This document shows positions 1 to 30,975 of a DNA stretch of 64,000 bases, one piece after another (the stretch's first letter is position 1; each line of letters begins with the position of its first letter). The position numbers and the translations under genes are program-made. The notes beneath the pieces are model-generated. The model saw nothing but the letters and a program-made list of their open reading frames with translations, made no database searches and had not been told where the DNA came from. Location: assembly GCF_044704955.1 (NCBI RefSeq), contig NC_091982.1, positions 166,532,001-166,596,000 on the forward strand. The letters are read 5' to 3'. Source of the DNA: Pristiophorus japonicus. Lineage: Eukaryota.

Positions 1-3000
1 GCTCGACCTGGAAGCCCGTCTCGGTCAAGTCGTCCAGGACCCGGCCCTGCGGACGGTGTACGAAGCGAAGAAGGCCGCGCTGAAGGACCTGCAGCTCGTC
101 GGGTCCCGAGGCGCGTTCGTGAGGTCGCGGATCCGGTTCCTGCGGGATCTGGACCGCGGCTCCCCCTTCTTCTACTCGCTGGAAAAAAGGCAGAGTGTCC
201 GTAAGCAGCTCTTGACGCTGCTGGCCGACGACGGCTCTCTCGTCTCGGATCCGGAGGGCGTCAACAACAGGGTCCGTGAATATTACGGGGCTCTGTTCTC
301 TCCGGATCCGTCCAGCGAGGAAGCGCGTAGAGTTTTGTGGGAGGACCTGCCGAAGGTCGGCCCGGAGGGCGCCGAAAATCTGGAAGCTCCGCTAAGCCTG
401 GCGGAGCTGACCGGTGCCCTCGCCCGGCTCTCGAGGGGAAAATCCCCGGGGCTGGACGGGCTGACCGTGGAGTTCCACAGGGCGTTCTGGGACGTCCTGG
501 GGGGCGACTACGCGCGGGTCCTGGGGGAAAGTCTGGCGACCGGGGAGATGCCCCTCTCTTGGCGCAGGGCAGTCATCGTCCTGCTGCCTAAGAAGGGCGA
601 TCTCCGCCTCCTTAAGAACTGGCGCCCGGTCTCCCTCCTCAGCACGGACTACAAAATCTTCGCCAGGGCGATGTCTGCTCGCCTTGGTGCCGTGCTGGAC
701 CACATGATCCACCCCGACCAGTCATACACGGTCCCGGGCCGGACAATCCACGACAACATCCATCTGGTCCGGGACCTCATCCATTGCTCCCAGGAGGCTG
801 GTCTGTCGGTCGCCTTCCTATCCCTCGACCAAGAGAAGGCGTTCGACAGGGTGGATCACGACTATCTGCTCGGAACTCTGCGCGCTTTCGGGTTCGGGAC
901 GCATTTCGTCGCCCGGATCCGACTTTTGTACGCCGCCGCGGAGTGTCTGATTAAGGTTAACGGGTCCTTGACGGCGCCCCTTCGCTTTAGGAGAGGGGTG
1001 CGCCAGGGATGCCCCATGTCCGGCCAGTTATACGCCGTTTGCGTGGAGCCTTTCCTGCGCCTCTTGCGGACGAGGTTGACGGGACTGGCTCTGCAAGGGC
1101 CGGGCGTGGAGGTCGTCCTCTCGGCTTACGCCGATGACGTGCTCCTCGCGGTAGAGGATCCCGCTGACCTGCGGAGGATGCGTGAGTGCCAGGAGATTTA
1201 CTCGGCCGCGTCCTCCGCCAGGATCAACTGGGAGAAATGTTCCGGACTCCTGGTGGGTCAGTGGCGGGTGGACTCCCTGCCGGAGGAGCTCAGGCCTTTT
1301 GCCTGGAGCACGACCCATCTCCTCTATCTGGGAGTCTACCTTAGCCCCGACGAGGAAGCCTGGCCGGCGAACTGGCAGGAGCTGGAGGCCAAGGTCGCCG
1401 CTCGCCTAGGGCGCTGGACAGGACTGCTCCGAGTGCTGTCCTACAGGGGTCGAGCGCTAGTCATAAACCAGCTGGTGGCCGCAATGCTGTGGTACCGGCT
1501 GGTCACTTTGACCCCTCCCCCTGCGTTTGTCGCCAAGATACAGAAGAAGCTGGTGGACTTCTTCTGGAACAACAGGAAGCACTGGGTCTCTGTCGCGGTC
1601 TTGAGTCTCCCGCTTGAGGAGGGCGGTCAGTCGTTGGTGTGCGTCAGCGCCCAGCTCGCGACTTTCCGTCTTCAGACCCTGCAGAGATACCTTTACGTCG
1701 AGCCCCCTCCTAGGTGGTGTGCTCTGGCGAGGTATTTCTTCCGCCAGCAGCTCGACCTCAATTATGACACGCAGCTCCTGTTTGTGAACTTGGGGGGTGC
1801 CAGGACCGCCCTCCGGGAGCTGCCTGTCTTTTACAGGGAACTCATCAGGGTCTGGAACAAAGTCTCCACCAAGCGCAGCTCTCCGCCGGCTGGAGTGGCG
1901 GCCGTCCTGCAGGAACCGCTGCTCGGGAATCCGTACCTCCACGGCCGAGGCTTCATGTGGCGGTCGGAAGAGAGGGCTGTGGCTGGTGAGGTGACCAGGG
2001 TCAGGGACCTGCTCGATGGCGGAGGAGCGGGCTGGATGGCGCCAGTCACGCTGGCGCGGCGCCTAAATTCTGCCAACGTCCGCCGCGCGGCCGATGCCAT
2101 CGAGTCGCTAAAAACAGCTCTGGGCCCTGACTCCGTTAGGTGTATCGAGGAGGCTCAAGCACGTGGGGAGATCCCGTCCGAACTGACCCCCGTCCGGACG
2201 GAATTCCTCATCGGCGCCAAACCCCGGAACCTCCCTCGGGGGCCGGCGCCTCACAACTTGAGCCGCCTCGGGGAAATCCCCTCCGTGCCTTTCAGTTCCG
2301 CGCGGAGGGGTTTCCTGTACGGGCTGCTCCTGCACACCCTCAACTTTGCCATCCTCGCCGGCCGTCCGGACACGCCATGGCGTACCATCTTGCCGTCCGG
2401 AGGAGGCGGGGGTCCCCGATGGAGGGCACTCTACGCAGGGGTCCTCCCACTATTCATCGGGGACTTGGCCTGGAGGGTGGTGCACGGAGCAGTGCCGTGC
2501 AACAAATTTTTAAGCCGGTTCACGGACTCCCAGGCCGCCTGCAATTTCTGCGGTCTGGAGGAGTCCGTGTTCCATGTTTTTATTGAATGCACGAGGTTGC
2601 AGCCCCTGTTTTATTATTTGAAGGGGCTGCTCCTGAAATTCTGGCTGCACTTCAGTCCCACTCTCCTGATCTTTGGGCACCCTGTGCGGAGGGGAGCGGG
2701 TAGGTCCGAGGGCCTCCTCGTAGGACTGCTCCTGGGCACGGCCAAGGGTGCCATCAGCCGGTCCAGGCAGCGGGCGGTCGAGGGGGTCGTTCAACCTGAC
2801 TGCCTGCCTCTCTTCCGCTCTTACATCCGATCCAGGGTGTCCTTGGAGATGGAGCACGCGGTGTCCACCGGTACGCTCGCGGCCTTCCGCGAGAGGTGGG
2901 CACCGGAGGGTCTGGAGTGCATCATCACGCCCGGCAACCAAATTTTAATTTGATTTTACGTTTTAAAGTTAATTTGTTTTAAATGCCGGTGCTTTTAGTG

Positions 3001-3204
3001 TCCCCTTCCCTTTTATAGGGGGCACTGGGGAAAAATTGTGATTTTAGTGCCCAAAAAAAAAAAACAAAAAAAAAAGAAAAAACACAAAAAAAAAACACAA
3101 AAAAGGGGGAAAAAAAAAAAATGGGCCTTGTAAATGTCTGGAGTGTCACCCAGGTCGGGTGGCACCGTTTAATGTTTTATGTTTTCACAGATAAACTCAA
3201 AAGA
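1..3204 (+). mobile_element. Tx1-clade non-LTR retrotransposon, copy 1 (5' part outside window)
   Basis: Near-identical to 7211-10408 (offset 7210 in ORF2). Contains the 3' part of ORF2 and a 3' UTR ending ...GATAAACTCAAAAGA. Confidence 0.95.
2..2953 (+). CDS. Tx1 ORF2, partial (RT plus C-terminal CCHC)
   Basis: Open frame with RT motifs KSPGLDG, NWRPVSLL, LDQEKAFDRV, GVRQGCPMSG, YADD, and CNFC..H...C near the C-terminus. Confidence 0.95.
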   Translation, partial: LDLEARLGQVVQDPALRTVYEAKKAALKDLQLVGSRGAFVRSRIRFLRDLDRGSPFFYSLEKRQSVRKQLLTLLADDGSLVSDPEGVNNRVREYYGALFSPDPSSEEARRVLWEDLPKVGPEGAENLEAPLSLAELTGALARLSRGKSPGLDGLTVEFHRAFWDVLGGDYARVLGESLATGEMPLSWRRAVIVLLPKKGDLRLLKNWRPVSLLSTDYKIFARAMSARLGAVLDHMIHPDQSYTVPGRTIHDNIHLVRDLIHCSQEAGLSVAFLSLDQEKAFDRVDHDYLLGTLRAFGFGTHFVARIRLLYAAAECLIKVNGSLTAPLRFRRGVRQGCPMSGQLYAVCVEPFLRLLRTRLTGLALQGPGVEVVLSAYADDVLLAVEDPADLRRMRECQEIYSAASSARINWEKCSGLLVGQWRVDSLPEELRPFAWSTTHLLYLGVYLSPDEEAWPANWQELEAKVAARLGRWTGLLRVLSYRGRALVINQLVAAMLWYRLVTLTPPPAFVAKIQKKLVDFFWNNRKHWVSVAVLSLPLEEGGQSLVCVSAQLATFRLQTLQRYLYVEPPPRWCALARYFFRQQLDLNYDTQLLFVNLGGARTALRELPVFYRELIRVWNKVSTKRSSPPAGVAAVLQEPLLGNPYLHGRGFMWRSEERAVAGEVTRVRDLLDGGGAGWMAPVTLARRLNSANVRRAADAIESLKTALGPDSVRCIEEAQARGEIPSELTPVRTEFLIGAKPRNLPRGPAPHNLSRLGEIPSVPFSSARRGFLYGLLLHTLNFAILAGRPDTPWRTILPSGGGGGPRWRALYAGVLPLFIGDLAWRVVHGAVPCNKFLSRFTDSQAACNFCGLEESVFHVFIECTRLQPLFYYLKGLLLKFWLHFSPTLLIFGHPVRRGAGRSEGLLVGLLLGTAKGAISRSRQRAVEGVVQPDCLPLFRSYIRSRVSLEMEHAVSTGTLAAFRERWAPEGLECIITPGNQILI

Positions 3205-3222
3205 GTTTCATGCACAAGGACC
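3205..3222 (+). repeat. 18-bp target-site duplication between the tandem Tx1 copies (CR1-derived)
   Basis: GTTTCATGCACAAGGACC, identical to 10409-10426 and 29270-29287. Confidence 0.9.
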
Positions 3223-4140
3223 AATTGTGGAGCTGTGGAGGCGTGTCCTGCTCAGTTGGAGCTGTGAGCAGTGAGGAGAGCAGCTAGCAACTTTTGCTCC
3301 TGCCTGGAGAGCCCTGAGACCAGCCCAGGAACAGAAGGAAGGAAGGGGTTTCACCACCAACTTTACCCAGAGGGAGAGGAGGAGAACAGAAAACTTTGCA
3401 ACAACTTCATCATTCTGCAAGGAGTTGGAGAGAGGGGGAAAAACCAACAACATCCAGTGTGGAAGGAGGGAGACTCTACTATCTCTACAGGTGGGTGTGG
3501 GTGCATTTCCCCAAACAGACTTTGTTGTATCGGTGGGGGGAGGAAAGAAGACCACTGAGGGCCGGAACATCGCGGGGGGTGTGTGTGTGTGTGGTAGTGT
3601 GCGTGGGGGCCGTGCTTACAACTAGGCCCCCCCCACAATTGGAACCCCCCCCACCCCCCACATTTGCCTAGCCTGGGATAGCTGGAGCTACCAGGCTGAA
3701 GATTGTTGTTTTTCTTAAAACTCCCAATTAAAGATCGTTGGGAGTGCCTGGTGGCTCCAGCTACCCCAGGTGAAGACATCTTCTCCCCCCACCTGAAGAC
3801 CACCCCAAGGACTTTTGTGTTTTTGCCATCTGGGGAGTGCACCCACCCACAGCTGCGAGGGGAGACCTGCCCTCGCAGTCCCCCCCACCCCTTCCCACCC
3901 CCCTCTCTCTTTCTCTGCTACTCTGTTTCTCCCCTCTCTCTCTGAGGCCTCTTCCTTCCAAATTTGCAAAAAAAAACCAATTAAGACAACTGAGCAGAGG
4001 GAGCAAGGCCTCTCCCCAATTGTCAACGAGGGGAGAGGTACCTCGTTAAGAGCTCCTCTGCTCAGTTAATTTACGAGGCCAATTAAGACCTTTAAGGCCT
4101 GTGACTTTGGGGTGGGTGTAGCCCTTAAAGGGACCCCGTG

Positions 4141-6237
4141 ATGGCGACCCCATCCACGCCGGTGGCAGGGCCAGCAAGGACGTATGCGCAGGTGGCAACC
4201 GCTTCCACGGCCCCTCCTGCGCCACCCGCTGCCCTGCCACCATTTAGGTTAATTACTAGAAAACACGGGGTCAAGAGCTACACTCACCCCACAATGACCA
4301 TCGAGGAGTGCGTGCGGGCGATGGCTGGGGTAGTCGGCCCCTCGGCCATTGTCGCAGCCTCCAAGATGTCTGGGAAGGCCGTGTTCTTCCTGGGGTCGGA
4401 GCGGGCGGTGTCCCTGGCCCTTGAAAAGGGGCTCACGGTGGGCGGGACGTTCCTGCCGGTGGACCCTCTCGAGGCCACCGCGCAGAGGGTCATCATTTCA
4501 AACGTCCCGCCCTTTGTTCCCGCTGAGCTCCTCCTCCCTCACCTACACCAACTGGGGGAGGTAAGGTCGGGGATCAACCCCATACCGCTCGGCCTCAGGG
4601 AGAACAGCCTGCGCCACGTGTTCTCCTTCCGCCGCCAGCTCTTTGTCCGGCTGGCGCGGGAGGAGACGACGGAGGGGAGCTTTAATGTGGTGCACGAGGG
4701 GACTGCCTACCGCGTCTTCTGGACGTCGGACGGCGTGCGGTGCCATGCCTGTAGGGAGGTGGGGCATGTTCGTAAGAACTGCCCCGCCTCCAAGGCCGCC
4801 AAACCACCGAAGGCGGCCAAAGCTGGCACCGCCGCCACCCCTCCCCCTAGTTGCGTCCGCGTGCCGGGAGCCATGGGTGCGCGGGCATCGTCGGAGGCCT
4901 TTGTTTTCAGGGCCTCCGGCGGGGGGGAGGGAGAGCGTTCGACCGGAAAGAAGGCGCGGAAGAAGGCGAAACATCTCGAGGCGGGTCCCCTCGGTGCGCC
5001 GGAAAGTCTGACCACCGCGCTCAGCCCAACCCAGTCACCGGCGAGCGCGGGGTGCCCCGAGCCCGTGCCCGGGCCCTTGAATACCACCACAGAGGGGCCC
5101 AGGCGCGGGCAAGAAAAGGAAAAGGGGGGGGCGGAGCGGGAGGCCTCGGCAGACATGGAGGTCTCCCTGACTCCGCGCGCCCCCAGGAACAAAAAGAGGC
5201 ACCGCCCCAATGAGGCGGAGGGGGAACAACATCCCTCCGCGGAGGAGTCGGTGCCCGCCGCGTATCCCGCGTCCCCCACCAGCGCCCCCAAATTGCGCTG
5301 CAGGCGCGAGGAGTCTTTCCCCGGGGAGGGTGAGACAGTTGAGGCTGCCCAGCCTCTGCCTCCCGGGGATGGAGTGGAAGATCTGCCTGTCGTGGGGGGC
5401 GTGGGGACCGCGGAGGAATGCGTAGCCGCCGGGCCGGGCGTCCCGGGGACTGAGGCGGGCGAGGCCGAAAAGGCCGAACCTGAGCCCGCCCAGCTATTAC
5501 CCAACTTCCCCCGGGATTTGCTCGACCCGGCAGAGAATGAAACAAATAATTATGACACTGTAGATGCTGGGCCGGGGGGTGGCAGCGGGGAGGGGGAGGA
5601 ACACCCACCCTCGCCCCTTACTTTGGAGCTGGAGCACTTGGAGGGCCTGGGGATTTCCTATGGCCGGGTCTCTCCTTGTTCTCCGGTTCCTGGGGCGGAG
5701 GGGGAACCCCTTCCGCTGTCATTTCCCGACCCAGCACCATTTTTAAAAGAGCCCAGTGGGGACTCCTCTGCCGACGATCCTGGGGGTGGGATCGGGGCAG
5801 TGCCAGGGCCGGTTGGAGCGGCCGGTTCATTTGCCGTACCTTGTGCGGTCGATGGGCCGGCTGCTGGCGGCCACCTCCCGGAGGAGGACGGGGACTCGGT
5901 GGGGGTCGCGGGTGAAGACCTAGAGACCACCGCCAGTGAGGCGGTGGATCTACTCGCGGCCGCCGCTGAGGCCCTCCTCGTTCCTGCAAAGGAACTCCGG
6001 GACTTTTTGGCCCAGAGCCGGGGTCGCCGCGACCAAGCCCGACTGGCCCTGGAAAAATGGTCCGAGCCGGAGCTGATCAAGGGGTCCGTCCGCGCCGCCG
6101 TTAAAACCTTGGCCGCGGGCGGGCCCTTGACAAAGGAGCAGCACCTTGAGCTGCGCGAGCTCGAGGGACTCCTCGCTGGGCTGCGGAGGGAGCGGAGTTC
6201 AACAAAAGACTCCGCTCCCTCCCCCACAATAGGTTAA
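4141..6237 (+). CDS. Tx1 ORF1 nucleic-acid-binding protein (RRM-like N-terminus, zinc knuckle, long low-complexity tail)
   Basis: ATG at 4141. Tx1 ORF1-type motifs IVAASKM and RVIISNVPPFV, knuckle CHACREVGHVRKNC, then a Pro/Glu/Gly-rich region. Confidence 0.9.
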   Translation: MATPSTPVAGPARTYAQVATASTAPPAPPAALPPFRLITRKHGVKSYTHPTMTIEECVRAMAGVVGPSAIVAASKMSGKAVFFLGSERAVSLALEKGLTVGGTFLPVDPLEATAQRVIISNVPPFVPAELLLPHLHQLGEVRSGINPIPLGLRENSLRHVFSFRRQLFVRLAREETTEGSFNVVHEGTAYRVFWTSDGVRCHACREVGHVRKNCPASKAAKPPKAAKAGTAATPPPSCVRVPGAMGARASSEAFVFRASGGGEGERSTGKKARKKAKHLEAGPLGAPESLTTALSPTQSPASAGCPEPVPGPLNTTTEGPRRGQEKEKGGAEREASADMEVSLTPRAPRNKKRHRPNEAEGEQHPSAEESVPAAYPASPTSAPKLRCRREESFPGEGETVEAAQPLPPGDGVEDLPVVGGVGTAEECVAAGPGVPGTEAGEAEKAEPEPAQLLPNFPRDLLDPAENETNNYDTVDAGPGGGSGEGEEHPPSPLTLELEHLEGLGISYGRVSPCSPVPGAEGEPLPLSFPDPAPFLKEPSGDSSADDPGGGIGAVPGPVGAAGSFAVPCAVDGPAAGGHLPEEDGDSVGVAGEDLETTASEAVDLLAAAAEALLVPAKELRDFLAQSRGRRDQARLALEKWSEPELIKGSVRAAVKTLAAGGPLTKEQHLELRELEGLLAGLRRERSSTKDSAPSPTIG

Positions 6238-6263
6238 GGTAGAGGTTGCACTATGCTTTTGCC

Positions 6264-9200
6264 ATGAAGATAACCATAGCCAGCCTCAACATCAACGGCG
6301 GCAGAGGGGCACGCCGTAGATTTGACAATTTTTCGCTCCTGCGGGAGGGGAAATATGCGGTGTGCTTCCTGCAAGAAACCCACACCGTTCCGGGAGACGA
6401 AGCCACGTGGCTCCTGGAATGGCAAGGAGAGGTCCGCATGAGCCACCTCACCGCCATTTCTAGTGGGGTGGCCATCTTGCTGGGCCCGCATTTTCAGCCG
6501 GAAATCTTGAGGGTCGAGGAGCCCGTGCCAGGCCGCTTGCTGCACGTAACGGTTCGCCTGGGGGACGTGCCGCTCCATCTCGTGAACGTGTACGCCCCTC
6601 ATCCCGGCCCGCAGCAAACGCGCTTCTTTGAAGAGGTGTCCGCTCTTCTTGGCTCCGTCGACGTCGGCGACTGCATTGTCCTCGGGGGGGATTTTAACTG
6701 CACCCTCGAGGCGAGGGACCGCTCCGGTGCCCCGCAGTGCATGACGGCGATGGAGAAGTTGAGGGACCTGGTCGGGTCCTTCGACTTGGTGGACGTCTGG
6801 CGAAATCTCCACCCCGACTCCAGCGCCTTTACTTGGGTGAGGCCTGGAGTTGGATGGTCTAGAGTCGACCGCCTTTACGTGTCTCGGGCGTACGTTTCCT
6901 GCGTCCCGGCGGCCTCCATGCGGCCGGTGCCGTGTTCGGACCACCACCTGGTGTGGGCGGAGCTCGCTTCGCTCCGCGCGAGGACGGGGTCCGCGTACTG
7001 GCACTTTAACAACCGGCTGCTGGAGGACGTGCGGTTCCAGGACTCGTTCCGTCGATTCTGGTCCGACTGGAGAAGGAAGCAGGGGGGCTTCCCCTCCTTG
7101 AGGCTATGGTGGGACGTGGGCAAGGCTCACGTCCGCGTCTTCTGTCAAGAGTACGCGAGGGGGTCGACCAAGAGGCGGGCGGCCAGAGTCGGGCGCCTAG
7201 AAAAAGAGGTGCTCGACCTGGAAGCCCGTCTCGGTCAAGTCGTCCAGGACCCGGCCCTGCGGACGGTGTACGAAGCGAAGAAGGCCGCGCTGAAGGACCT
7301 GCAGCTCGTCGGGTCCCGAGGCGCGTTCGTGAGGTCGCGGATCCGGTTCCTGCGGGATCTGGACCGCGGCTCCCCCTTCTTCTACTCGCTGGAAAAAAGG
7401 CAGAGTGTCCGTAAGCAGCTCTTGACGCTGCTGGCCGACGACGGCTCTCTCGTCTCGGATCCGGAGGGCGTCAACAACAGGGTCCGTGAATATTACGGGG
7501 CTCTGTTCTCTCCGGATCCGTCCAGCGAGGAAGCGCGTAGAGTTTTGTGGGAGGACCTGCCGAAGGTCAGCCCGGAGGGCGCCGAAAATCTGGAAGCTCC
7601 GCTAAGCCTGGCGGAGCTGACCGGTGCCCTCGCCCGGCTCTCGAGGGGAAAATCCCCGGGGCTGGACGGGCTGACCGTGGAGTTCCACAGGGCGTTCTGG
7701 GACGTCCTGGGGAGCGACTACGCGCGGGTCCTGGGGGAAAGTCTGGCGACCGGGGAGATGCCCCTCTCTTGGCGCAGGGCAGTCATCGTCCTGCTGCCTA
7801 AGAAGGGCGATCTCCGCCTCCTTAAGAACTGGCGCCCGGTCTCCCTCCTCAGCACGGACTACAAAATCTTCGCCAGGGCGATGTCTGCTCGCCTTGGTGC
7901 CGTGCTGGACCACATGATTCACCCCGACCAGTCATACACGGTCCCGGGCCGGACGATCCACGACAACATCCATCTGGTCCGGGACCTCATCCATTGCTCC
8001 CAGGAGGCTGGTCTGTCGGTCGCCTTCCTATCCCTCGACCAAGAGAAGGCGTTCGACAGGGTGGATCACGACTATCTGCTCGGAACTCTGCGCGCTTTCG
8101 GGTTCGGGACGCATTTCGTCGCCCGGATCCGACTTTTGTACGCCGCCGCGGAGTGTCTGATTAAGGTTAACGGGTCCTTGACGGCGCCCCTTCGCTTTAG
8201 GAGAGGGGTGCGCCAGGGATGCCCCATGTCCGGCCAGTTATACGCCGTTTGCGTGGAGCCTTTCCTGCGCCTCTTGCGGACGAGGTTGACGGGACTGGCT
8301 CTGCAAGGGCCGGGCGTGGAGGTCGTCCTCTCGGCTTACGCCGATGACGTGCTCCTCGCGGTAGAGGATCCCGCTGACCTGCGGAGGATGCGTGAGTGCC
8401 AGGAGATTTACTCGGCCGCGTCCTCCGCCAGGATCAACTGGGAGAAATGTTCCGGACTCCTGGTGGGTCAGTGGCGGGTGGACTCCCTGCCGGAGGAGCT
8501 CAGGCCTTTTGCCTGGAGCACGACCCATCTCCTCTATCTGGGAGTCTACCTTAGCCCCGACGAGGAAGCCTGGCCGGCGAACTGGCAGGAGCTGGAGGCC
8601 AAGGTCGCCGCTCGCCTAGGGCGCTGGACAGGACTGCTCCGAGTGCTGTCCTACAGGGGTCGAGCGCTAGTCATAAACCAGCTGGTGGCCGCAATGCTGT
8701 GGTACCGGCTGGTCACTTTGACCCCTCCCCCTGCGTTTGTCGCCAAGATACAGAAGAAGCTGGTGGACTTCTTCTGGAACAACAGGAAGCACTGGGTCTC
8801 TGTCGCGGTCTTGAGTCTCCCGCTTGAGGAGGGCGGTCAGTCGTTGGTGTGCGTCAGCGCCCAGCTCGCGACTTTCCGTCTTCAGACCCTGCAGAGATAC
8901 CTTTACGTCGAGCCCCCTCCTAGGTGGTGTGCTCTGGCGAGGTATTTCTTCCGCCAGCAGCTCGACCTCAATTATGACACGCAGCTCCTGTTTGTGAACT
9001 TGGGGGGTGCCAGGACCGCCCTCCGGGAGCTGCCTGTCTTTTACAGGGAACTCATCAGGGTCTGGAACAAAGTCTCCACCAAGCGCAGCTCTCCGCCGGC
9101 TGGAGTGGCGGCCGTCCTGCAGGAGCCGCTGCTCGGGAATCCGTACCTCCACGGCCGAGGCTTCATGTGGCGGTCGGAAGAGAGGGCTGTGGCTGGTGAG

Positions 9201-10163
9201 GTGACCAGGGTCAGGGACCTGCTCGATGGCGGAGGAGCGGGCTGGATGGCGCCAGTCACGCTGGCGCGGCGCCTAAATTCTGCCAACGTCCGCCGCGCGG
9301 CCGATGCCATCGAGTCGCTAAAAACAGCTCTGGGCCCTGACTCCGTTAGGTGTATCGAGGAGGCTCAAGCACGTGGGGAGATCCCGTCCGAACTGACCCC
9401 CGTCCGGACGGAATTCCTCATCGGCGCCAAACCCCGGAACCTCCCTCGGGGGCCGGCGCCTCACAACTTGAGCCGCCTCGGGGAAATCCCCTCCGTGCCT
9501 TTCAGTTCCGCGCGGAGGGGTTTCCTGTACGGGCTGCTCCTGCACACCCTCAACTTTGCCATCCTCGCCGGCCGTCCGGACACGCCATGGCGCACCATCT
9601 TGCCGTCCGGAGGAGGCGGGGGTCCCCGATGGAGGGCACTCTACGCAGGGGTCCTCCCACTATTCATCGGGGACTTGGCCTGGAGGGTGGTGCACGGAGC
9701 AGTGCCGTGCAACAAATTTTTAAGCCGGTTCACGGACTCCCAGGCCGCCTGCAATTTCTGCGGTCTGGAGGAGTCCGTGTTCCATGTTTTTATTGAGTGC
9801 ACGAGGTTGCAGCCCCTGTTCCATTATTTGAAGGGGCTGCTCCTGAAATTCTGGCTGCACTTCAGTCCCACTCTCCTGATCTTTGGGCACCCTGTGCGGA
9901 GGGGAGCGGGTAGGTCCGAAGGCCTCCTCGTAGGACTGCTCCTGGGCACGGCCAAGGGTGCCATCAGCCGGTCCAGGCAGCGGGCGGTCGAGGGGGTCGT
10001 TCAACCTGACTGCCTGCCTCTCTTCCGCTCTTACATCCGGTCCAGGGTGTCCTTGGAGATGGAGCACGCGGTGTCCACCGGTACGCTCGCGGCCTTCCGC
10101 GAGAGGTGGGCACCGGAGGGACTGGAGTGCATCATCACGCCCGGCAACCAAATTTTAATTTGA
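6264..10163 (+). CDS. Tx1 ORF2: APE endonuclease, reverse transcriptase, CCHC
   Basis: MKITIASLNING, LQETH, NVYAP, GGDFN, RVDR, SDH (APE endonuclease); RT with YADD; CNFCGLEESVFHVFIEC. No stops in 1299 codons. Confidence 0.97.
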   Translation: MKITIASLNINGGRGARRRFDNFSLLREGKYAVCFLQETHTVPGDEATWLLEWQGEVRMSHLTAISSGVAILLGPHFQPEILRVEEPVPGRLLHVTVRLGDVPLHLVNVYAPHPGPQQTRFFEEVSALLGSVDVGDCIVLGGDFNCTLEARDRSGAPQCMTAMEKLRDLVGSFDLVDVWRNLHPDSSAFTWVRPGVGWSRVDRLYVSRAYVSCVPAASMRPVPCSDHHLVWAELASLRARTGSAYWHFNNRLLEDVRFQDSFRRFWSDWRRKQGGFPSLRLWWDVGKAHVRVFCQEYARGSTKRRAARVGRLEKEVLDLEARLGQVVQDPALRTVYEAKKAALKDLQLVGSRGAFVRSRIRFLRDLDRGSPFFYSLEKRQSVRKQLLTLLADDGSLVSDPEGVNNRVREYYGALFSPDPSSEEARRVLWEDLPKVSPEGAENLEAPLSLAELTGALARLSRGKSPGLDGLTVEFHRAFWDVLGSDYARVLGESLATGEMPLSWRRAVIVLLPKKGDLRLLKNWRPVSLLSTDYKIFARAMSARLGAVLDHMIHPDQSYTVPGRTIHDNIHLVRDLIHCSQEAGLSVAFLSLDQEKAFDRVDHDYLLGTLRAFGFGTHFVARIRLLYAAAECLIKVNGSLTAPLRFRRGVRQGCPMSGQLYAVCVEPFLRLLRTRLTGLALQGPGVEVVLSAYADDVLLAVEDPADLRRMRECQEIYSAASSARINWEKCSGLLVGQWRVDSLPEELRPFAWSTTHLLYLGVYLSPDEEAWPANWQELEAKVAARLGRWTGLLRVLSYRGRALVINQLVAAMLWYRLVTLTPPPAFVAKIQKKLVDFFWNNRKHWVSVAVLSLPLEEGGQSLVCVSAQLATFRLQTLQRYLYVEPPPRWCALARYFFRQQLDLNYDTQLLFVNLGGARTALRELPVFYRELIRVWNKVSTKRSSPPAGVAAVLQEPLLGNPYLHGRGFMWRSEERAVAGEVTRVRDLLDGGGAGWMAPVTLARRLNSANVRRAADAIESLKTALGPDSVRCIEEAQARGEIPSELTPVRTEFLIGAKPRNLPRGPAPHNLSRLGEIPSVPFSSARRGFLYGLLLHTLNFAILAGRPDTPWRTILPSGGGGGPRWRALYAGVLPLFIGDLAWRVVHGAVPCNKFLSRFTDSQAACNFCGLEESVFHVFIECTRLQPLFHYLKGLLLKFWLHFSPTLLIFGHPVRRGAGRSEGLLVGLLLGTAKGAISRSRQRAVEGVVQPDCLPLFRSYIRSRVSLEMEHAVSTGTLAAFRERWAPEGLECIITPGNQILI

Positions 10164-10408
10164 TTTTACGTTTTAAAGTTAATTTGTTTTAATTGCCGGT
10201 GCTTTTAGTGTCCCCTTCCCTTTTATAGGGGGCACTGGGGAAAAATTGTGATTTTAGTGCCCAAAAAAAAACAAAAAAAAAAAAGAAAAAACACAAAAAA
10301 AAACACAAAAAAGGGGGGAAAAAAATGGGCCTTGTAAATGTCTGGAGTGTCACCCAGGTCGGGTGGCACCGTTTAATGTTTTATGTTTTCACAGATAAAC
10401 TCAAAAGA

Positions 10409-10426
10409 GTTTCATGCACAAGGACC
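10409..10426 (+). repeat. 18-bp target-site duplication, continuing directly into CR1 sequence
   Basis: GTTTCATGCACAAGGACC followed by CCCAGGTCCCTCTGCACCGC, the antisense of CR1 AVQRDLGVLVHE. Confidence 0.9.
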
Positions 10427-11390
10427 CCCAGGTCCCTCTGCACCGCAGCATGTTGTAATTTCTCCCCATTCAAATAATATTCCCTTTTACTGTTTTTTTT
10501 TCCCCCAAGGTGGATGACCTCACACTTTCCGACATTGTATTCCATCTGCCAAACCTTAGCCTATTCGCTTAACCTATCCAAATCTCTTTGCAGCCTCTCT
10601 GTCCTCTACACAACCCGCTTTCCCACTAATCTTTGTGTCATCTGCAAATTTTGTTACACTACACTGTCCCCTCTTCCAGGTCATCTATGCATATTGTAAA
10701 CAGTTGTGGTCCCAGCACCGATCCCTGTGGCACACCACTAACCACCGATTTCCAACCGGAAAAGAACCCATTTATCCCGAATCTCTGCTTTCTGTTCGCC
10801 AGCCAATTCTCTATCCATGCTAATACATTTCCTCTGACTCCGCGTACCTCTATCTTCTGCAGTAACCTTTTGTGTGGCACCTTATCGAATGCCTTTTGGA
10901 ATTCTAAATACACCACATCCATCGGTACACCTCTATCCACCATGCTCATTATATCCTCAAAGAATTCCATAAATTAGTTAAACATGATTTCCCCTTCATG
11001 AATCCATGCTGCATCAGCTTGATTGCACTATTCCTATCTAGATGTCCCGCTATTTCTTCCTTAATGATAGTTTCAAGCATTTTCCCCACTACAGATGTTA
11101 AACTAACCAGCCTATAGTTACCTGCCTTTTGTCTGACCCCTTTTTTAAACAGAGGCGTTACATTAGCTGCTTTCCAATCTGCTGGTACCTCCCCAGAGTC
11201 CAGAGAATGTTGGTAGATTATAACGAATGCATCTGCTATAACTTCCACCATCTCTTAATACCCTGGGATGCATTTCATCAGGACCAGGGGACTTGTCTAC
11301 CTTGAGTCCCATTAGCCTGTCCAGCACTACCCCCCTAGTGATAGTGATTGTCTCAAAGTCCTCCCTTCCCACATTCCTGTGACCAGCAAT
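10409..11390 (-). mobile_element. CR1 LINE fragment (RT region), host of the Tx1 array
   Basis: Minus-strand frames give [56 protein letters not shown], with frameshifts. Confidence 0.92.
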
Positions 11391-15282: not shown

Positions 15283-16559
15283 GTATTTTTTTTACTTTCC
15301 CTTTTTTAAATAATAAGCCTATTCTAAAATTTCCACTGCTAATCTTACTTTAAATACTTTGACCTCACTCCTCCTATGAATGTCCCCACTCAGATTGTCA
15401 ATTTTGGTTGAGGAACCTACACTGAAAAAATTGACTTTACATTGGCAGAAAACTGGTCCCAAAGGCTAGGTTGGGTAGGTTTCTTCTGCCAATCAGATGT
15501 CAAATTGTCACAGTTGACATAAATACAACCAGAACAAATTTTGCCAATTTTGAAGCTTCAAACCGTTGAGAGCTATTGCAAAATGAGTAGTCTGCAAAGC
15601 ACCAGGGGGCCGAAATTGCCCCTTTTTTAAAGAGCCATTACCACCTAAAAGATGCGATTACGGGGCGGAAATTAGTTTCATCTCAGTCGGGGCAGCCTCC
15701 CTGATGATCAGGTCATCGCCCTCATGATTTCTTCAGGTGGAGAAGGTGAGCACCCAACTCCCCCGACATCCGCCCCGCTCCTCGGAGCACGGCAATAAAG
15801 ACATCCTCATAGCACGCACTACCTGGTCCCTGCCCTGGAAGTGACATTGCCCAGAAATCGTCGATCGAACACTTGTCGGTGCCAGCAACAGATTTTTCTG
15901 TTGCAGTAAAATCTGCAATCTAAACCGCCAGCAGTATTTAAAGGCGCAATGCGGCTCGCACCATTGTTGTCGGCAAAATTTTTATTCTGGGTTGAGGCTT
16001 TGAACGTTTTACCTCTAATTTGGGCTTCAACGATTACTGGGCCTCACTTTGCACAGCTTCCAGTATCGAATCTTGCTCCAAGAACTAGCATTAGCAGAGT
16101 AGGCCACTGTTTGCAAATAATGGGCTCAGTCCTGGCAGCGGAACGCCTCCTGCACATTGTGCGTGGCACGGTGGATCGCAGCAGAGAGCGGCAACACCAA
16201 CTACAGATACAGAGGCAGCGTGAGAGGGACAGAGATAGGATGAGTCACCGAGATGGAGATAGCCATATACCTGCATAAAGAGAAGGATGTGGGGAAGGAC
16301 GTGAAGAAGGGCATGCAGTGAGGAGGAGGGTCGGAGACAAAGACCCCCAGAACCAGAGAATGAGGGACATGGAGAGGAGAAGGCAACATCAACAGCAGGC
16401 GGATGTGTGCCAGCACCAGGATGCAGAGGGTCAAGAGCAGCATGGCCAGGAGGTAGAAGGGGATGAGGAAGGTGGCAGAGCAAGACACAGTCACAGACGT
16501 GATGGCGGAAGGCCCTATGTGCAAGGGTCTTCAGACAACAGGTTTCCTACATGGACCTC

Positions 16560-19340
16560 AATAGTAAAGGATGAATTCCGAACAATAGTGAGAAAGGATA
16601 TTGGCTCAGAAAATCAAGATGTAGAATCAGTCTGGATGGAGCTAAGGAGCACCAAGGGCCAGAAACCATTGGTGGGAGTTGTCTATAGGCCTCCAAACAG
16701 TAATGGTAATGTAGAGGACGGTATCAAACAGGAAATTAGAGATGCATGTAACAAGGGTACTACAGTAATCGTAGGTGACTTTAATCGACATATAGACTGG
16801 TCAAACCAAATTAGTAATAATACTGTGGAAGATGAATTCCTGGAGCGTGTACAAGATGTTTTTTTAGACCAGTATGTTGAGGAGCCTACTAGGGAACAGG
16901 TTATCCTAGATTGGGTATTGTGCAATGAGAAGGGGTTAATTAACAGTCTTGTTGTGCGGGGTCCTTTAGGGAAGAGTGACCATAACATGATTTAATTTTT
17001 TATTAAGATGGAAAGCGAAGTAGTCCAATCCAAAACTAGGGTCCTAAATCTAAACAAAGGAAACTGCGAAGTTATGAGGAATGAAATGGCTATGATATAT
17101 TGGGAAGATTCATTAAAAGTCATGACTGTGGATTGGCAATAGCTAATATTTAAGGAATTAATGCATGAATTGCAATAGTTATACATTCCTTTCTGGCATA
17201 AAAACACACAAGAAAAAGTGGCCCAACCATGGCTAACAAAAGAAATTAAGGATAGTGTTAGATCCAAAGAGGAGTCATACAAAGTTGACAGAAAAAGTAG
17301 CAAGCCTGAGGATTGGGAGCAGTTTGGAAAAAAGGACCAAGAGATTGATTGAGGGGGAAAATAGAGTATGAGAGTAAACTTGCAAGGAACATAAAAACTG
17401 ACTGCAAAAGTTTTACAAGTACAAAAAAAGAAAAATATTAGTGAAGACAAATTAGTAGGTCCTTTACAGTCAGAAATGGGGAACAAGGAAATGGCAGAAC
17501 AATTAAATAAATACTCGGCTCTGTCTTCACGGAAGAGGACACAAATAACGTCCTAGAAATGCTAGGGAACCAAAGGTCGAGTGAGCAAGAGGAATTAAAG
17601 GAAATGATTATTAATAAGAAAATAGTGCCGGAGAAACTAATGGGACTGAAGGCCGATAAATCCTCAGGGCTTGATGATCTGCATCCCAGAGTACTAAAAG
17701 GGTGGATGGAAATAGTGGATGCAGATTGGAGGGTGGCAAATGTAACCCCACTATTTAAAAAAGGAGGGAGAGAGAAAACAGGGAACTAGAGACCGGTTAG
17801 CCTAACATCAGTAGTAGGGAAAATGCTAGCATCTATTATAAAGGATATGATAATGGGACACTTGGATTATATCAATGGGATAAGACAAAGTCAACATGGA
17901 TTTATGAAAGGAATTTCGTGTTTGACAAACCCACTGGAGTTTTTTGAGGATGTAACTGATAGAATAGATAAGGGAGAACCAGTGGATGTAGTGTATTTGG
18001 ATTTTCAGAAGGCCTTTGATAAAGTCTCACATAAGAGGTTAGTGTGCAAATTAAAGCACATAGGATTGGGGGTAATCTACTGGCATGGATTGAAAATTGG
18101 TTAACTGACAGGAAACTGAGAGTAGGAATAAACGGGTCTTTTTGGGGATGGCAGGCAATGACAAGTGGGGTATCAGTGCTTGGGCCCCAGCTATTCACGA
18201 TATATATATCTGGATGAGGGAACCAAATGTAATATTTTCAAGTTTGCTGATGACACAAAACTAGGTGGGATTGTGAGTTGTGAGGAGGTGCTGCAAGACG
18301 ATTTAGATAGGTTGAGTGAGTGAGCAAACACATGGCAGATGCAGTATAATGTGGATAAATGTGCAGTTATCCACTTTGGTAGGAAAAAAATAAAGACAAA
18401 GTATTATTTAAATGGTGATAGCTTGGAAAATGTCGGTGTACAAAGGGACCTGGGTGTCCTTGCACACCAGTCATTGAAAGTAAAGATGCAGGTGCAGCAA
18501 GCAGTTAGGAAGGGAAATGGTATGTTGGCCTTCATTGTAAGAGGATTTGAGTACAGGAGCAAGAATGTCTTACTACAGTTATACAGAACCTTGGTGAGAC
18601 CGCAGCTGGAGTATTGTGTGCAGTTTTAGTCTCCTTACCTAAGAAAGGATATACTTGCCATAGTGCAGCGAAGGTTCACCAGACTGATTCCTGGGATGGC
18701 CTTACTGTCGTATAGAAACATAGAAACATAGAAAATAGGTGCAGGAGTAGGCCATTTGGCCCTTCGAGCCTACACCACCATTCAATAAGATCATGGCTGA
18801 TCATTCACCTCAGTACCCCTTTCCTGCTTTCTCTCCATATCCTTTGATCCCTTTTGCCATAAGGGCCATATCTAACTCCCTCTTGAATATGAGGAGCGAT
18901 TGGGTCGACTAGGCCTGTATTCACTAAAGTTTAGAAAAATGAGTGGGGATCTCATTGAAATGTATAAAATTCTGACTGGGTTGGACAGACTGGATGCGGG
19001 GAGGATGTTTCCGCTGGCTGGGAAGTCTAGAACAAGGGGTCACAGTCCCAGGATACGGGGTAGGAAATTTAGAACCGAGATGAGGAGAAATGTTTTCACT
19101 CAGAGGGTGGTGAACCTGTGGAGTTTTCTACCACAGAAGGCTGTGGAGGCCAAGTCACTGAATATATTTAAGAGGGAGATAGATAGATTTCTAGACACAA
19201 AAGGCATCAAGGGACATGGGGGGAAAAGCGGGAATATGATGTTGAGATAGAGGATGAGCCATGATCATATTGAATGGCGGTGCAGACTCGAAGGGCCGAA
19301 TGGCCTACTACTGCTCCTATTTTCTATGTTTCTATGTTTC
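16560..19340 (+). mobile_element. CR1 LINE, 5'-truncated (EN to 3' tail)
   Basis: VVYRPP, GDFN, SDH endonuclease motifs; RT motifs with stops and frameshifts; ends in (TTCTATGT)n. Confidence 0.93.
18713..18887 (-). mobile_element. Short CR1 3' tail inserted antisense into a CR1
   Basis: (AGAAACAT)n...GGAGTAGGCC interrupts host CTGTCG-TAT-GAGGAG, with TAT on both sides. Confidence 0.85.
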
Positions 19341-20330
19341 AATGATGACCAGTGTCTGCAGAGACTGTGATTCAGGAAAAATATGGTGTCAGAGCTGTGC
19401 AATCTCCTCCAGCCAGACCTGCAGCCTGAAACAAGGGTGAAGATGGCTCTATCAGTGGCATCAAAGGTCACCATCGCCCAGAATTTCTATTCCACTAGAC
19501 CTTTCCAAGGAGCCACAGCAGACATCTCCAACTGCTCCCAATATGCTGTGTATTGCTCCATCCATCAGGTCACAGATGCTCTGTACAAGAGGAAGAGAGA
19601 TTACATCTCCTTTGCAATGACCAGAAAGAAGCAGTTGGAGCGCCCTACTGGCTTCTTCAGGATATCGGGCTTCCCCAGGGTTCAGGGCGCTTTAGACTGC
19701 AGCCATATGGCATTGAGGGCACCGCACAATCCAAAGATCTTCCGAAATCAGAAGGGATTCCACTCACTCACTGTCCAGTTGGTGTGTGACCACAACCACC
19801 CAATCATGGTCGTTGATGCCCGGTATCCTGGCAGCAGCCGCGATGCTTTCATGCTGCGGCAGACCCGTGTGCCAGGTGTGTTTGATGCATCAAATGAAGG
19901 TCGCGGCTGGCTCCTAGGAGACACTGTGCACTTGGCTGCTGAGTCCCCTTCGCAACCCCACCATACCTGCGCAGCAATCTTACAACGAATGTCATAATTT
20001 GGCCAACAGGTGCATCACTGAATAGACAATCGGAATCTTTAAACAGTGGTTCCACTGCCTGGATCGCTCAGGAGGAGTGCTGCATTACTCACCTGACTGG
20101 GTGTCTATATTTGTCATCGTCAGCTGCATGCTTCACAACCTGCCAATCAAGAGGGCACAGCCATTGGCCGACGATGTACCAGTAGCACCTGAGGAGGAGG
20201 CGCAGGAGGAGGACGTGCAGTAGGAGGAGGAGGCGCAGGAGGAGGAGGAGAAGGAGGTGCAGGAGGTGGCCTCGCCATCCCGATCCTGCAAGAGAATTCC
20301 GAGACCGTCTCATTGATGCGCGTTTCCACT
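19341..20330 (+). pseudogene. HARBI1-like Harbinger DDE transposase, disrupted
   Basis: GFPRVQGALDCSHMAL, FRNQKGFHSLTVQLVCD, ARYPGSSRDAF, WLLGD; frameshifts and an acidic tail. Confidence 0.9.
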
Positions 20331-24846: not shown

Positions 24847-25518
24847 AGTTATGTCAAAGGTGTATGATTACATCACAAATGGCTGGCCAAACTAGGTAAC
24901 AGAGAAAGATATTCATCCATACTTCTTTCGTAGGAATGAATTGTCCGTGGATAAAGATTGTATCATGTGGGGTACCAAATAAATTCAGGTCCAAATTATT
25001 AGGAGATCTTCATGTCCATCACCTGGGAATATGCTTGATCAAGAGTTTTGCACGTAGTTAATTATGGTGAACAGGTCTAGATAAAGATATAGGGCTAGAA
25101 CGTCCACTTTTGTGCTTATTGCCCAAAAATGGGCATTATTTCCAGAATGGGCATTAAAAAAGAGTTTTCAGATTGCTGGCTTCTCGCCCATTCTCAAAAC
25201 ACCTAGTTTCCATTTTTGAATATGGGCATTACCGCGAGCGATATCAAATGGGCGGCAGCGTTAAAACTCTCTGACCTTCTGCCGTAAAGTGTGGCTATCC
25301 TTAGCAACAGCATGGCAACGCTCGATTCCCGCATTCAGAAGGTCAAGAATCACCATGACATGCACAGAAGAGGAGACAGAGAGAGAGTGTGTGTGGCTAT
25401 GGTTGTGCTTGTCTGGCTGTTGTGGGAGCAACGATGGAGATTCACCAGTCGCAAAAAGCCTACTAAGCACCAAGAACATAGTTGGCACTGAGTTTTTGTC
25501 CGACAAATAAGATATAAC

Positions 25519-25875
25519 ATGGAAGGGATGGAGGAGGCCCTGGAGCTGGTAGTCAGGAAAACTGGTGACAGAGGGCTCCCAGTGGTCCGGGAGCACCGCA
25601 CTGCACCCCAAAATGACGCACCCCAATTACCAATTACACATGAGAGCCAGCAGCAACATCTTGCTTCTGTTTTGGAGCACATTCCCACCTCGGGACCGTC
25701 CTCTCCCGTAGCCGTCCAAGCAGCATTTCGGCCGACGCCGCCCACAATGAAGCATTGCCTGAGGACCTCATCAGCCAGGTTGTTTGGAGTCAGGAGAGGA
25801 AGGGGAAGGGGTAGAGGTGGGGAGGAGAAGCGGGGGCGAGGGGGTGGAAAGGGTTGGTTTGTACAGAACTACTGA
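25519..25875 (+). CDS. Short Harbinger partner ORF (118 aa, RG-rich end, no Myb domain)
   Basis: ATG-initiated and also open in the second copy (52909-53352). Coding status is unproven. Confidence 0.4.
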   Translation: MEGMEEALELVVRKTGDRGLPVVREHRTAPQNDAPQLPITHESQQQHLASVLEHIPTSGPSSPVAVQAAFRPTPPTMKHCLRTSSARLFGVRRGRGRGRGGEEKRGRGGGKGWFVQNY

Positions 25876-26107
25876 TGATTTCAGACTAATGTTCGGTTTA
25901 AATGTTTTTTATTTAACAAAACCTTGTAGCACATTGGCTCAGATAGCTGCACCATTACACGCTGGTGATTCCTTTACATCAAAGGGTATAATCACACTTA
26001 ACTTCTATCAACGTAAACTTTAACTGTCACCAAGGTGATGCCCACCATTGATGTATGACCTGCACACCCAGCAGTGTGTCAGCCTTGTAAATAACACCAA
26101 CCTTCTT

Positions 26108-28570: not shown

Positions 28571-30975
28571 GAACATAAGAACATAAGAAATAGGAGCAGG
28601 AGTAGGCTATATGGCTCCTCGAGCCTGCTCCGCCAATCAAGAAGATCATAGCTGACCTGATCATGGACTCAGCTCCACTTCCCTGCCTACTCCCCATAAC
28701 ACTTTACTCCCTTTTCGCTCAAAAGTCTGTCTATCTCCACCTTAAATATATTGAATGACCCAGCCTCCACAGCTCTCTAGGGCAGAGAATTCCATAGATT
28801 TACAATCATCTGAGAGAAGAAATTTCTCCTCATCTCTGTTTTAAATGTGCGGCCCCTCATTCTAAGACTATGTCCCCTAGTTTTAGTTTCACCTATGAGT
28901 GGAAATATCCTCTCTGCATCCACCTTGTCGAGCCCTCTCATTATCTTATAAGTTTCAATTAGATCACCTCTCATTCTTCTGAACTCCAATGTGTATAGGC
29001 CCAACCTACTCAACCTATCTTCATAAGTCAACCCCCTCATCTCCGGAATCAAACTAGTGAACCTTCTCTTAACAGCCTCCAATGCAAGTATATCCTCCCT
29101 TATATATGGAGACCAAAATTGTATGCAGTACTCTCGGTGTGGCCTCATCAATACCCTGTACAGTTGTAGCAGGACTTCTCTGCTTTTATACTCTATCCCC
29201 CTTGCAATAAAGGCCAACATTCCATTTGCCTTCATGATTACTTGCTGTAGCTGCATACTAACTTTTTGTGTTTCATGCACAAGGACCCCCAGATCTCTCT
29301 GTACTGCAGCACTTTGCAATTTATAATTTACTTTTCTATTATTTCTGCCAAAGTGGATCGTCTCACAGTTTCTCACATTATTTTCCCAGTTTCTTAAACG
29401 ATAAGGGGATAAGGGGTTATGGGGAGGGGGCAGAGAAGTGGAGCTGAGTCCATGATCAGATCAGCCATGATCTTATTGATTGGCGGAGCAGGCTCGAGGA
29501 GCCGTATGGCCTACTCCTGCTCCTATTTCTTATGTTCGGATGTTCTTATACGCCATCTGCCAAATTTTTGCCCACTCTATATCCCTTTGTAGATTTTTTG
29601 TGTCTTCCTCACAATTTGCTTTCCTACCCATCTTTGTATCATCAGCAAACTTGGCTGCATTGCACTTGGTCCCTTCATCCAAGTCATTAATATAGATTGT
29701 AAATAGTTGAGGACCCAGTACCGATCCCTGCAGCACACTAATAGTCACCGCTTGCCAACTGGAAAATTACCCATTTATCCCGACTCTCTATTTTCTGTTA
29801 GTTAGCCAATCCTCTATCGATGCTAATATATTATCCCCAACTCCGTGAGCTTTTACCTTGTGCAGTAACCTCTTATGTGGCACCTTAACGAGTGCCTTCT
29901 GGAAATCCAAATACACAACATCCACTGGTTCCCCCTTACCTATCCTCGTTACATCCTGAAAGAACTCCAGCAAATTTGTTAAACATGATTTCCCTTTCAT
30001 AAAACCATGCTGACTCTGCTTGATTGAATCATGCTTTTCTAAATGTCCCACTACTGCTTCCTTAATAATGGACTCCAGCATTTTCCCAACGACAGATGTT
30101 AGGCTAACTGGTCTATAGTTTCCTGCTTTTTGTCTGCCTCCTTATTTAAATAGGGGCGTTAGATTTGTGGTTTTTCAATCTGCTAGGACCGTCCCAGAAT
30201 CATGGGAATTTTGGTAGATTACAACCAATGCATCCACTATCTCTGCAGACACTTCTTTTAAGATCCTAGGATGTAAGGCATCAGGTCCAGGGGATTTTGT
30301 CCGCCTTTAGTCCCATTATTTTACCAAATACTACTTCATCAGTGATAGTGATTGTATTTAGTTCCTCCCTACCTATAGTCCCTTGATTATCCACTATTGG
30401 GATGTTTTAGTGTCTTCTACCGTGAAGACCGATATAAAATATTTGTTCAATGTCTCTGCCGTTTCCCTGTTCTCCATTATTAATTCCCCAGTCTCATCCT
30501 CCAGGGGACCAACATTTACTTTTGCCACTCTTTTCCTTTTTATGTACCTGTAGAAACTCTTACTGTTTTTATATTTCATGCTAGTTTACTTTCATAATCT
30601 ATCTTCCCTCTCTCAATCATTTCTTTAGTCGTTCTCTGCTGGCTTTTAAAAATTTCCCAATTCTCTGGTCTCCCACTAGTCAATGACACATTGTATGCCT
30701 TTGTTTTCAATTTGATACCCTCCCTTATGTCCTTAGATAACCATGGATGCTTATCCCTTTCTCTTTCCTTCTCATTGGGATATATTTTTGATGCGAGTTA
30801 TGAAATATCTCCTTAAATGTCTGCCACTGCTCATCAACCGTCCCATTCTTTAGTCTATTTTCCCAGTCCATTTTAGCCAACTCTGCCCGCATACTTTTGT
30901 AGTCTCCTTTATTTAAACTTAGGACCCTGGTTTGAGAGCCAACTTCTCACCCTCCAGCTGAATTTGAAATTCAAC
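28571..30975 (-). mobile_element. CR1 LINE inserted in Gypsy A; carries an uninterrupted Tx1 target 18-mer
   Basis: (AAGAACAT)n tail at the left end; [39 protein letters not shown]. Confidence 0.93.
29390..29549 (+). mobile_element. Short CR1 3' tail inserted antisense into a CR1
   Basis: GGCCTACTCCTGCTCCTATTTCTTATGTTC, opposite to the host orientation. Confidence 0.82.

Follow-up and report, generated by a model that had tools for sequence, protein, structure and literature searches.

Tandem arrays of a Tx1-clade LINE within CR1 elements of Pristiophorus japonicus: neighbouring units share their 5' heads and commonly differ in their bodies and 3' ends

The closest described precedent is offered by the R1 elements in the 28S genes of Drosophila, where tandem units are parted by a 14-bp TSD and insertion into the 5' TSD of the resident was proposed, according to the accessible part of the source (PMC2718515). 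Tandem copies of the crocodilian SINEU-3 similarly sandwich one TSD, which was explained by sequential insertion in the portion of the article available (PMC4494074). McGurk and Barbash put forward, in the available text of their study (10.1101/158386), that double insertion seeds TE satellites with the TSD inside the junctions, and that the resulting dimers may expand by unequal exchange. With regard to the 5' end, excerpts of more mechanistic studies describe R2 forming its 5' joints by homology annealing ('anneal') with engineered homology (PMC11371274), BRCA1-dependent recombination of L1 cDNA with homologous DNA, twice with endogenous L1 (PMC13526784), duplications of 1-10 kb interpreted as large TSDs (10.1101/2024.12.14.628481), and templated insertions near the site of L1 insertion (10.1101/2024.08.27.596794). 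Tandem re-insertion into a TSD is already known; the polarity reported below, a local head on a foreign body, was not found in print. No report of a CR1-targeting Tx1 element or of inherited 5' joints was found in the open literature, Repbase and most subscription papers lying outside the scope of the search, and a prior description is possible given that scope. The work of Gilbert (2002/2005) reportedly belongs with that on L1 cDNA recombination, templated insertions, and large TSDs.

The window, by which the whole stretch of DNA analysed here is meant, covers 64,000 nt of the forward strand of the Pristiophorus japonicus assembly (GCF_044704955.1, NC_091982.1:166,532,001-166,596,000). The original prediction described head-to-tail copies with a period of about 7.2 kb and no CR1 sequence between them except the target motif, and both descriptions held: two LINE copies follow each other head to tail at window 1-3206 and 3223-10410 with 99.3% identity across 3,222 bp, self-BLAST finds window 1-3222 again at 7211-10426 (99.3% identity), and antisense CR1 sequence stands after the last unit. 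A third full unit is located upstream of the window, the three units starting at window -11174, -3979, and 3223. The array consists of three 7.2-kb units of a Tx1-clade LINE inserted antisense into ORF2 of a CR1 LINE (Table 1). The other half of the host CR1 lies upstream of unit 1, and the two flanks are contiguous in frame (QRDLGVLVHE / VLVHESQK), with a 16-nt overlap when aligned to another CR1 copy. The CR1 label of the host follows from its resemblance to other copies in the window, which carry RT/EN fragments and end in TTTCTATG-type tails, both features of the CR1 family. Further CR1-like copies are found at window 16279-19340 (+), with a diverged target near 18450, and at about 28570-30620 (-), with an empty exact target at 29272. 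The window also contains LTR-type remnants (31400-42000 and 61807-63831) consisting of a pair of related copies that are 72% identical and retain fragments of protease and integrase, and of an RT/RNase H frame of 674 codons; DDE_Tnp_4 transposase remnants (19371-19997, 25092-27994, and 50882-53787), including a 2.9-kb element in two inverted, 82% identical copies; and a C/T-rich minisatellite of 22 copies of 28 bp at 47175-47800.

Table 1. Features of the array and its surroundings, in window coordinates.
Feature	Position	Strand	Remarks
Unit 1	-11174 to -3996		Upstream of the window
Unit 2, 3' part	1..3206	+	Unit start at window -3979
Unit 2 ORF2 remainder, open	2-2953	+	
Terminal hairpin AAACTC-AAAA-GAGTTT	3193..3208	+	Fold prediction only
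Core TSD TTCATGCACAAGGA, 14 bp	3207..3220	+	
CC	3221-3222	+	CR1 or element start, ambiguous
Unit 3, full length	3223..10410	+	7,188 bp, beginning directly behind CC
ORF1, about 698 aa from first ATG	4141..6237	+	
ORF2, 1,299 aa	6264..10163	+	APE endonuclease, RT, C-terminal zinc motif
TSD, 3' copy	10411..10424	+	CR1 sequence (CCCCCAGG...) directly after
Host CR1 LINE, antisense to array	10411..11377	-	Broken within ORF2 at R-D-L-G-V-L-V-H-E-S
Empty target in another CR1 copy	29272..29285	+	Exact match

The arrayed element is of the Tx1 type and CR1 is its host, because ORF2 and ORF1 both match Tx1 proteins. ORF2 carries the Pfam domains PF03372 and PF00078, with PF13966 below its cut-off; it is 49% identical over 100% to the Xenopus Tx1 149 kDa ORF2 (YTX2 Xenopus; Tx1L) and has partial matches of 69-70% to ray and shark proteins. 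The N-terminal part of ORF1 matches the Transposon TX1 82 kDa ORF1, one among 8 matches (37% over 70% of residues 1-260, E 8e-29). A CCHC knuckle was recognised by eye in ORF1; no Pfam family was found for it. Judged by similarity ranking, the element is thus placed in the Tx1 clade. A CR1 affiliation was ruled out, the best named full-length match being the Tx1 ORF2, and self-BLAST of the unit gave no match to the window's CR1 copies. The 5' UTR measures 0.9 kb, and a long ORF2 is kept in 40 and both ORFs in 30 of the 63 sampled units with both ends. The element has no terminal poly(A), the 3' UTR of unit 2 holding A-rich tracts, and ends instead in a short predicted hairpin. The final two base pairs of this hairpin would involve the first two bases of the target, and only read-through RNA would contain the whole predicted structure. 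The hairpin is predicted in 25 of 28 listed 3'-end types; its loop varies, A-U/G-U changes affect one side of the stem, and compensating changes on both sides were not seen in the fold predictions for these 28 types.

The left flank of the array reads ...TTTTTTGGGA directly before TTCATGCACAAGGACC, and at the internal joints TTCATGCACAAGGACC is preceded by AAAAGAGT. From this comparison at most 16 bp are duplicated at the window array, and the leading GT (3205-3206) is assigned to the element's 3' end. The 18-bp TSD originally proposed gives way to one of about 14 bp, 16 at most in the window array. The 5'-truncated copies mostly display a 14-bp duplication, TTCATGCACAAGGA, so the final CC is probably formed by the element's first bases, which also match CR1; the 18-mer is made up of two element bases, the 14-bp TSD, and two ambiguous bases. 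Full-length starts read CCAAT, at times with one extra A, G or T. The empty-site context TTTTGT/G on which the earlier argument drew had been taken from a different CR1 copy at window 29270 and not from the array locus.

The original prediction suggested looking for arrays at other CR1 loci and for 5'-truncated units within arrays; the former were found genome-wide and the latter were also encountered. Counted as exact patterns in one assembly, which are lower bounds, pattern-dependent and inflated by segmental duplicates, there are 25,896 empty targets, 6,009 element-to-CR1 joints (6,009 of 31,905 exact targets occupied, about 19%), 4,208 element-to-full-length-start joints (tandem junctions), and 658 CR1-to-full-length-start joints, with 86% of full-length starts (4,208/4,866) lying behind another unit. 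On-target 3' ends number at least 14,939; the first 100 such rows, sorted by eye, lead into CR1 (70), a full start (21), or a truncated unit (9). The 46-nt junction has 65 exact copies in the genome and its reversed control none. By eye, 80 of the first 100 listed 3' ends run into the CR1 motif, and 11 of the 20 off-target ends still continue TTCA; the criterion for a target preference in the accessible text of PMC4494074 is more than 20% of flanks of one type. On C12 the junction spacing implies an array of about 21 periods. Segmental copying is visible at L135-L142 (C1, first 3.3 Mb), where 7 of the 20 loci belong to one or other of two groups whose copies are 98-99.8% identical; four of these loci have one mini-insertion of 36 bp in common.

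Two sets of arrays were compared, all of them except the window's from one contig (C1) of one assembly. Set 1 comprised 17 arrays (the window's and 16 from C1) with 96 units, 63 with both ends, and was picked with the junction rows already in view (same 5' joint, different 3' types); its full units gave 48 adjacent and 1,798 between-array pairs. Set 2 comprised 11 arrays taken by position from the tandem-junction list and was partly blind, as the junction letters were visible and some rows had been seen earlier. The median identical 5' tract in set 1 was 109 nt for adjacent units versus 4 nt between arrays, and the identical 3' tract was 13 nt versus 13 nt. Set 2 gave 109 versus 4 nt at the 5' side (26 adjacent and 608 between-array pairs) and 13 versus 13 nt at the 3' side (23 adjacent pairs). 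The ratio of adjacent to between-array divergence in set 1 was 0.15 for nt 1-49 and climbed along the unit, reaching 0.74-0.83 at the 3' end, and the first difference cluster lay at a median of 262 nt in adjacent pairs, 30 nt in non-adjacent pairs of the same array, and 4 nt between arrays. The asymmetry of sharing falls exactly at the nick.

The nearest-relative results follow the same polarity. At nt 1-60, 50 of 62 units had their nearest sampled relative within their own array; the figure was 9-12 of 56-62 for every bin at nt 3001-7000 (chance 8%) and 25 of 62 for the last 188 nt, where homopolymers blur the alignment; for nt 6000-end, our own count of the list gave 18 same-array and 26 other-array cases and 4 ties among 48. 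A tree of nt 1-200 required 18 array-label changes (minimum 13, shuffled 46.9), and one of nt 4600-6900 in ORF2 required 36 (minimum 14, shuffled 52.0), below the shuffles, so the bodies still cluster somewhat by array. In the window array, the first 108 nt are identical in all three units, the closest sampled unit outside it having 2/108 differences. Units 1 and 2 share nt 1-1002; the nearest ORF2 (3001-6000) relatives of these two sit in other arrays.

The units of one locus are therefore not always each other's closest relatives, whereas it was their always being so that the original prediction had named as a refutation of re-insertion; bodies are often nearer to other loci. Its proposal that successive re-insertion into the TSD builds arrays survives with respect to repeated insertion, which these scattered relationships of the bodies indicate, but not with respect to independent 5' joints, since neighbours share them. 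The idea that new copies are added on the 5' side likewise stands in part. Short de novo truncated units upstream of full-length residents, present for example in five of eight set-2 arrays with a resolved left end, show that the TSD on this side is used. The upstream bases do not appear to decide the polarity, because internal junctions after AAAAGAGT also seem to be used (C145 unit 3 and G80 unit 3, judged from their neighbours), and the non-CR1 TSD between six consecutive units at the off-target locus H122 also counts against such a rule. Unit order is a weak test of direction owing to selection bias, with a shorter unit upstream of a longer one in about 14 cases and the reverse in about five.

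Certain irregularities of the arrays and their joints deserve mention in their own right. Many units in a138, a150, a180, a131, a60, and I75 are internally deleted, and the deletion joints frequently show short overlaps. In a138, unit 2 carries an internal duplication (1-4080 joined to 1488-7188), and a180 unit 3 consists of a 271-nt head and the last bases. In I75, units 2 and 4 pair together as local twins, as do units 3 and 5. At L075:7790-7920, a 5S rRNA copy (Rfam) and 14 nt of element 3' UTR are fused before a truncated unit with loss of the TSD, which looks like RT template switching. A 520-bp piece at L082 (about 1400-1930, -), at the end of array a152, combines a tRNA-Gln head, a tRNA-like middle, and the element's last bases in a CR1 target; it was rejected as a SINE family as its tail pattern matched only one place in the genome, which makes a one-off template-switch product likelier. 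A stretch at L147 (about position 5000, element orientation), between a shortened TSD and a truncated unit, presumably resembles the 3' half of a tRNA. The left and right CR1 target copies of a152 (L082-L089) have 3 mismatches in 16 bases, which would fit a rearrangement that brought two different CR1 copies together. At L148 (about 4760-4990, element orientation), a 117-bp tandem duplication with short microhomology crosses the 5' joint, taking in CR1 flank as well as the TSD and roughly 62 nt from the element. In D141 (L046-L047), insertions of 3-5 kb with ATAGAAAC-type repeats at their borders split units 6 and 7; these are probably CR1 copies that entered the Tx1 array.

Neither of the two plain models fits these observations, given that duplication alone keeps 3' ends alike and independent insertion gives independent joints. 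We favour, with a probability of about 0.65 and by reading the events from their end products, that TPRT takes place at the TSD upstream of a resident unit and that the cDNA would be joined by homology to resident-derived 5' DNA, giving a local head on an outside body. The element targets a motif of 14 bp that lies antisense in CR1 ORF2 and leaves a 14-bp TSD; it would nick this motif and, as expected from its family, insert by TPRT. The short de novo units ahead of residents show that the TSD there is used again, and the DNA directly downstream of this repeat nick would be the resident's 5' end. The upstream broken end would then carry or copy the TSD and tens to thousands of resident bases, possibly via extended second-strand processing or SDSA/BIR-like synthesis, and may anneal to the homologous point of the incoming cDNA. 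The product would be one extra unit having the neighbour's 5' joint and head and the outside donor's body and 3' end, in keeping with the pattern observed; truncated cDNAs could be completed to full length, and unequal exchange or whole-unit copying would add a minority of near-identical units. As the head is copied from the resident beside the nick, arrays should grow mainly 5' of residents and retain the joint of the founder, marked by an extra base, a truncation point, or an off-target TSD. Such head capture is not obligatory: in 7 of 48 adjacent pairs a difference already appears in the first 12 nt, and some blocks have new joints.

The main rival, which we consider unlikely, reverses the order of events: local copying, by unequal exchange at TSDs or between units, duplicates a unit, and later TPRT at the TSD behind it overwrites its 3' part with the number of units unchanged. 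The same chimeras of local head and foreign body would result, so that the sequence by itself fits either order; in addition, the upstream unit's 3' end shares homology with the RNA at a position directly next to the nick. Near-identical local units do exist, as in C145 (units 4 and 6, 2 substitutions), a1579 (units 1 and 2, 8 substitutions), and a131; C145 units 2/4/6/7, a131, and a1579 units 1/2 form a minority that look like local copies, so duplication also contributes. Against this order of events, dimers would have to arise frequently via 14-bp repeats and nearly the whole 7 kb would have to be replaced, the median first difference cluster being at nt 262; twins that escaped replacement are few (fewer than 20 substitutions in 2 of 48 adjacent pairs), and the short de novo units upstream of residents show that TPRT does add units at this TSD.

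Plain re-insertion, in which every unit is wholly independent with its own 5' joint as in the R1 literature, accounts for a subset comprising the de novo truncated units and the new-joint blocks in G80, a150, a152, j9, j22, and j124, and is very improbable as the general explanation. It leaves unexplained how five or six donors came to have one truncation point. All five units of B157 are truncated at 4830 with five different 3' types, each unit being closest to a member of some other array, in one case at 0.17%; H122 repeats one truncation point, along with its non-CR1 TSD, over six consecutive units of mixed 3' types; and L149, from 20 loci in list order, is a dimer with one truncation whose units differ at 29 of 1,207 nt, both being nearer to units elsewhere. 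B157 refutes plain re-insertion as the sole mechanism unless its units are assembly mosaics. Equally unexplained is an extra base common to whole arrays: a27, a137, and a1579 have an extra A at the left flank and all internal joints that is absent from the right CR1 flank, and an extra G in j112 is similarly distributed. Consecutive junctions in the tandem-junction list have the same joint type in 45 of 49 cases (about 52% expected, by eye).

A single insertion per locus followed only by unequal crossover or tandem duplication has equally little to recommend it. Shared joints, some twins, and the 10 identical junctions at C12:74.77-74.92 Mb speak for it; 3' ends and bodies of different subfamilies with nearest relatives at other loci speak against it, as does C145 unit 3, which differs from its neighbours by 256-259 substitutions and yet has nt 1-51 in common with them. 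The nearest-relative results refute crossover as the sole cause and leave it as a minor contributor. A TE-derived satellite grown by unequal exchange was rejected on the same-array counts for nt 3001-7000, and describes a minority of units. Truncated loci are mostly solitary (9 of 12 resolved independent loci), which weighs against head capture but could also reflect easier unequal exchange between long units.

The gain of several units per event from multi-unit read-through RNA or RT template jumping is a similarly slim prospect. It would suit the canonical CR1 target sequence inside the non-CR1 array H122, the one joint without a TSD in a115, and a truncated joint that occurs at two loci 0.66 Mb apart (C1:31291371 and 31956163-31958383, on opposite strands). 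A locus's left-flank joint nevertheless matches its internal joints, and template jumping would not be expected to separate units by a TSD peculiar to the locus; apart from the joint in a115, exactly one TSD stands between units. In j120, a block made up of a mini-unit with its TSD and the head that follows is found again after another type of 3' end, which speaks for head capture. Integration of an excised circle was rejected, as a donor-type joint would then lie inside the array, where the internal joints match the locus's left joint. An assembly artefact (haplotype duplication or mosaic consensus) is the least probable account, for although no contig piece spans the array among four contig runs covering all 30 unit-3 bins, the CR1 flanks are single-copy and contiguous, the units differ by 32-83 substitutions in polar blocks, and thousands of junctions are spread over many contigs, with locus-private joints; a 3'-skewed depth in three runs was given no weight.

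Should head capture occur as proposed, a further reading may be entertained, although we hold it tentatively and at a little less than even odds: that head capture, and not complete reverse transcription, is the usual route to a new full-length copy. Occupied sites would then be far better sinks than the 25,896 empty targets, and the arrays would serve as fixed places of recombination, where promoters and ORF1 of local origin are coupled to ORF2 and 3' ends from outside and truncated cDNAs are rescued. Each array would also keep an ordered record of which donors were active through time and of repair tract lengths during second-strand synthesis in a vertebrate germline. Head capture would reassort parts within the family and extend short copies to full length. 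The arrays bear on the long-standing questions of LINE cDNA 5'-end joining and of LINE 5' UTR/ORF1 swapping, offering thousands of natural events at a known nick beside a marked homologous resident from which tract length, direction, and donor can be read. They also present a LINE parasitising another LINE at scale, with about a fifth of exact targets occupied and some 35 Mb of sequence if each of the 4,866 full-length starts heads a 7.2-kb unit, and a route from a dispersed LINE to 150-kb arrays unlike simple satellite expansion. For gene-insertion tools of the R2/Tx1 type, it suggests that a downstream sequence homologous to the 5' end of the cargo could raise full-length and tandem insertion.

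In comparison with the known systems, the likeness to R1 lies in the one 14-bp TSD between units and the proposed insertion 5' of the resident; R1 differs in its clade, its rDNA target, and a concerted evolution that hides donors, and its 5' joints are variable, local heads on outside bodies not being described in the accessible part of the source (PMC2718515). Xenopus Tx1L and crocodilian Tx1-Mar share with the present element the Tx1 clade, an APE-RT ORF2, and a target inside another TE; the targets named in the available portion of PMC4494074 are piggyBac, Mariner, Harbinger, and LTR elements, snRNA genes, and microsatellites and not a CR1 LINE, and inherited 5' joints are not reported there for Tx1L, Tx1-Mar, or SINEU-3. 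In the scheme of McGurk and Barbash, as far as its accessible text goes (10.1101/158386), independent events are recognised by their distinct truncations and expansion produces units that resemble each other, whereas Tx1 arrays combine identical truncations with different donors. The independence of 5' joints characteristic of R1 and SINEU is not a property of the Tx1 arrays, in which bodies are largely independent and 5' joints and heads are shared. The excerpted L1 and R2 studies come close in another respect, as cDNA ends there are joined through homology, copy DNA from close by, or leave behind duplications of kb length; these L1 outcomes are occasional and the R2 homology is engineered, whereas the targeting of Tx1 would put a homologous resident beside every repeat nick, and capture by Tx1 may for that reason be routine and array-building.
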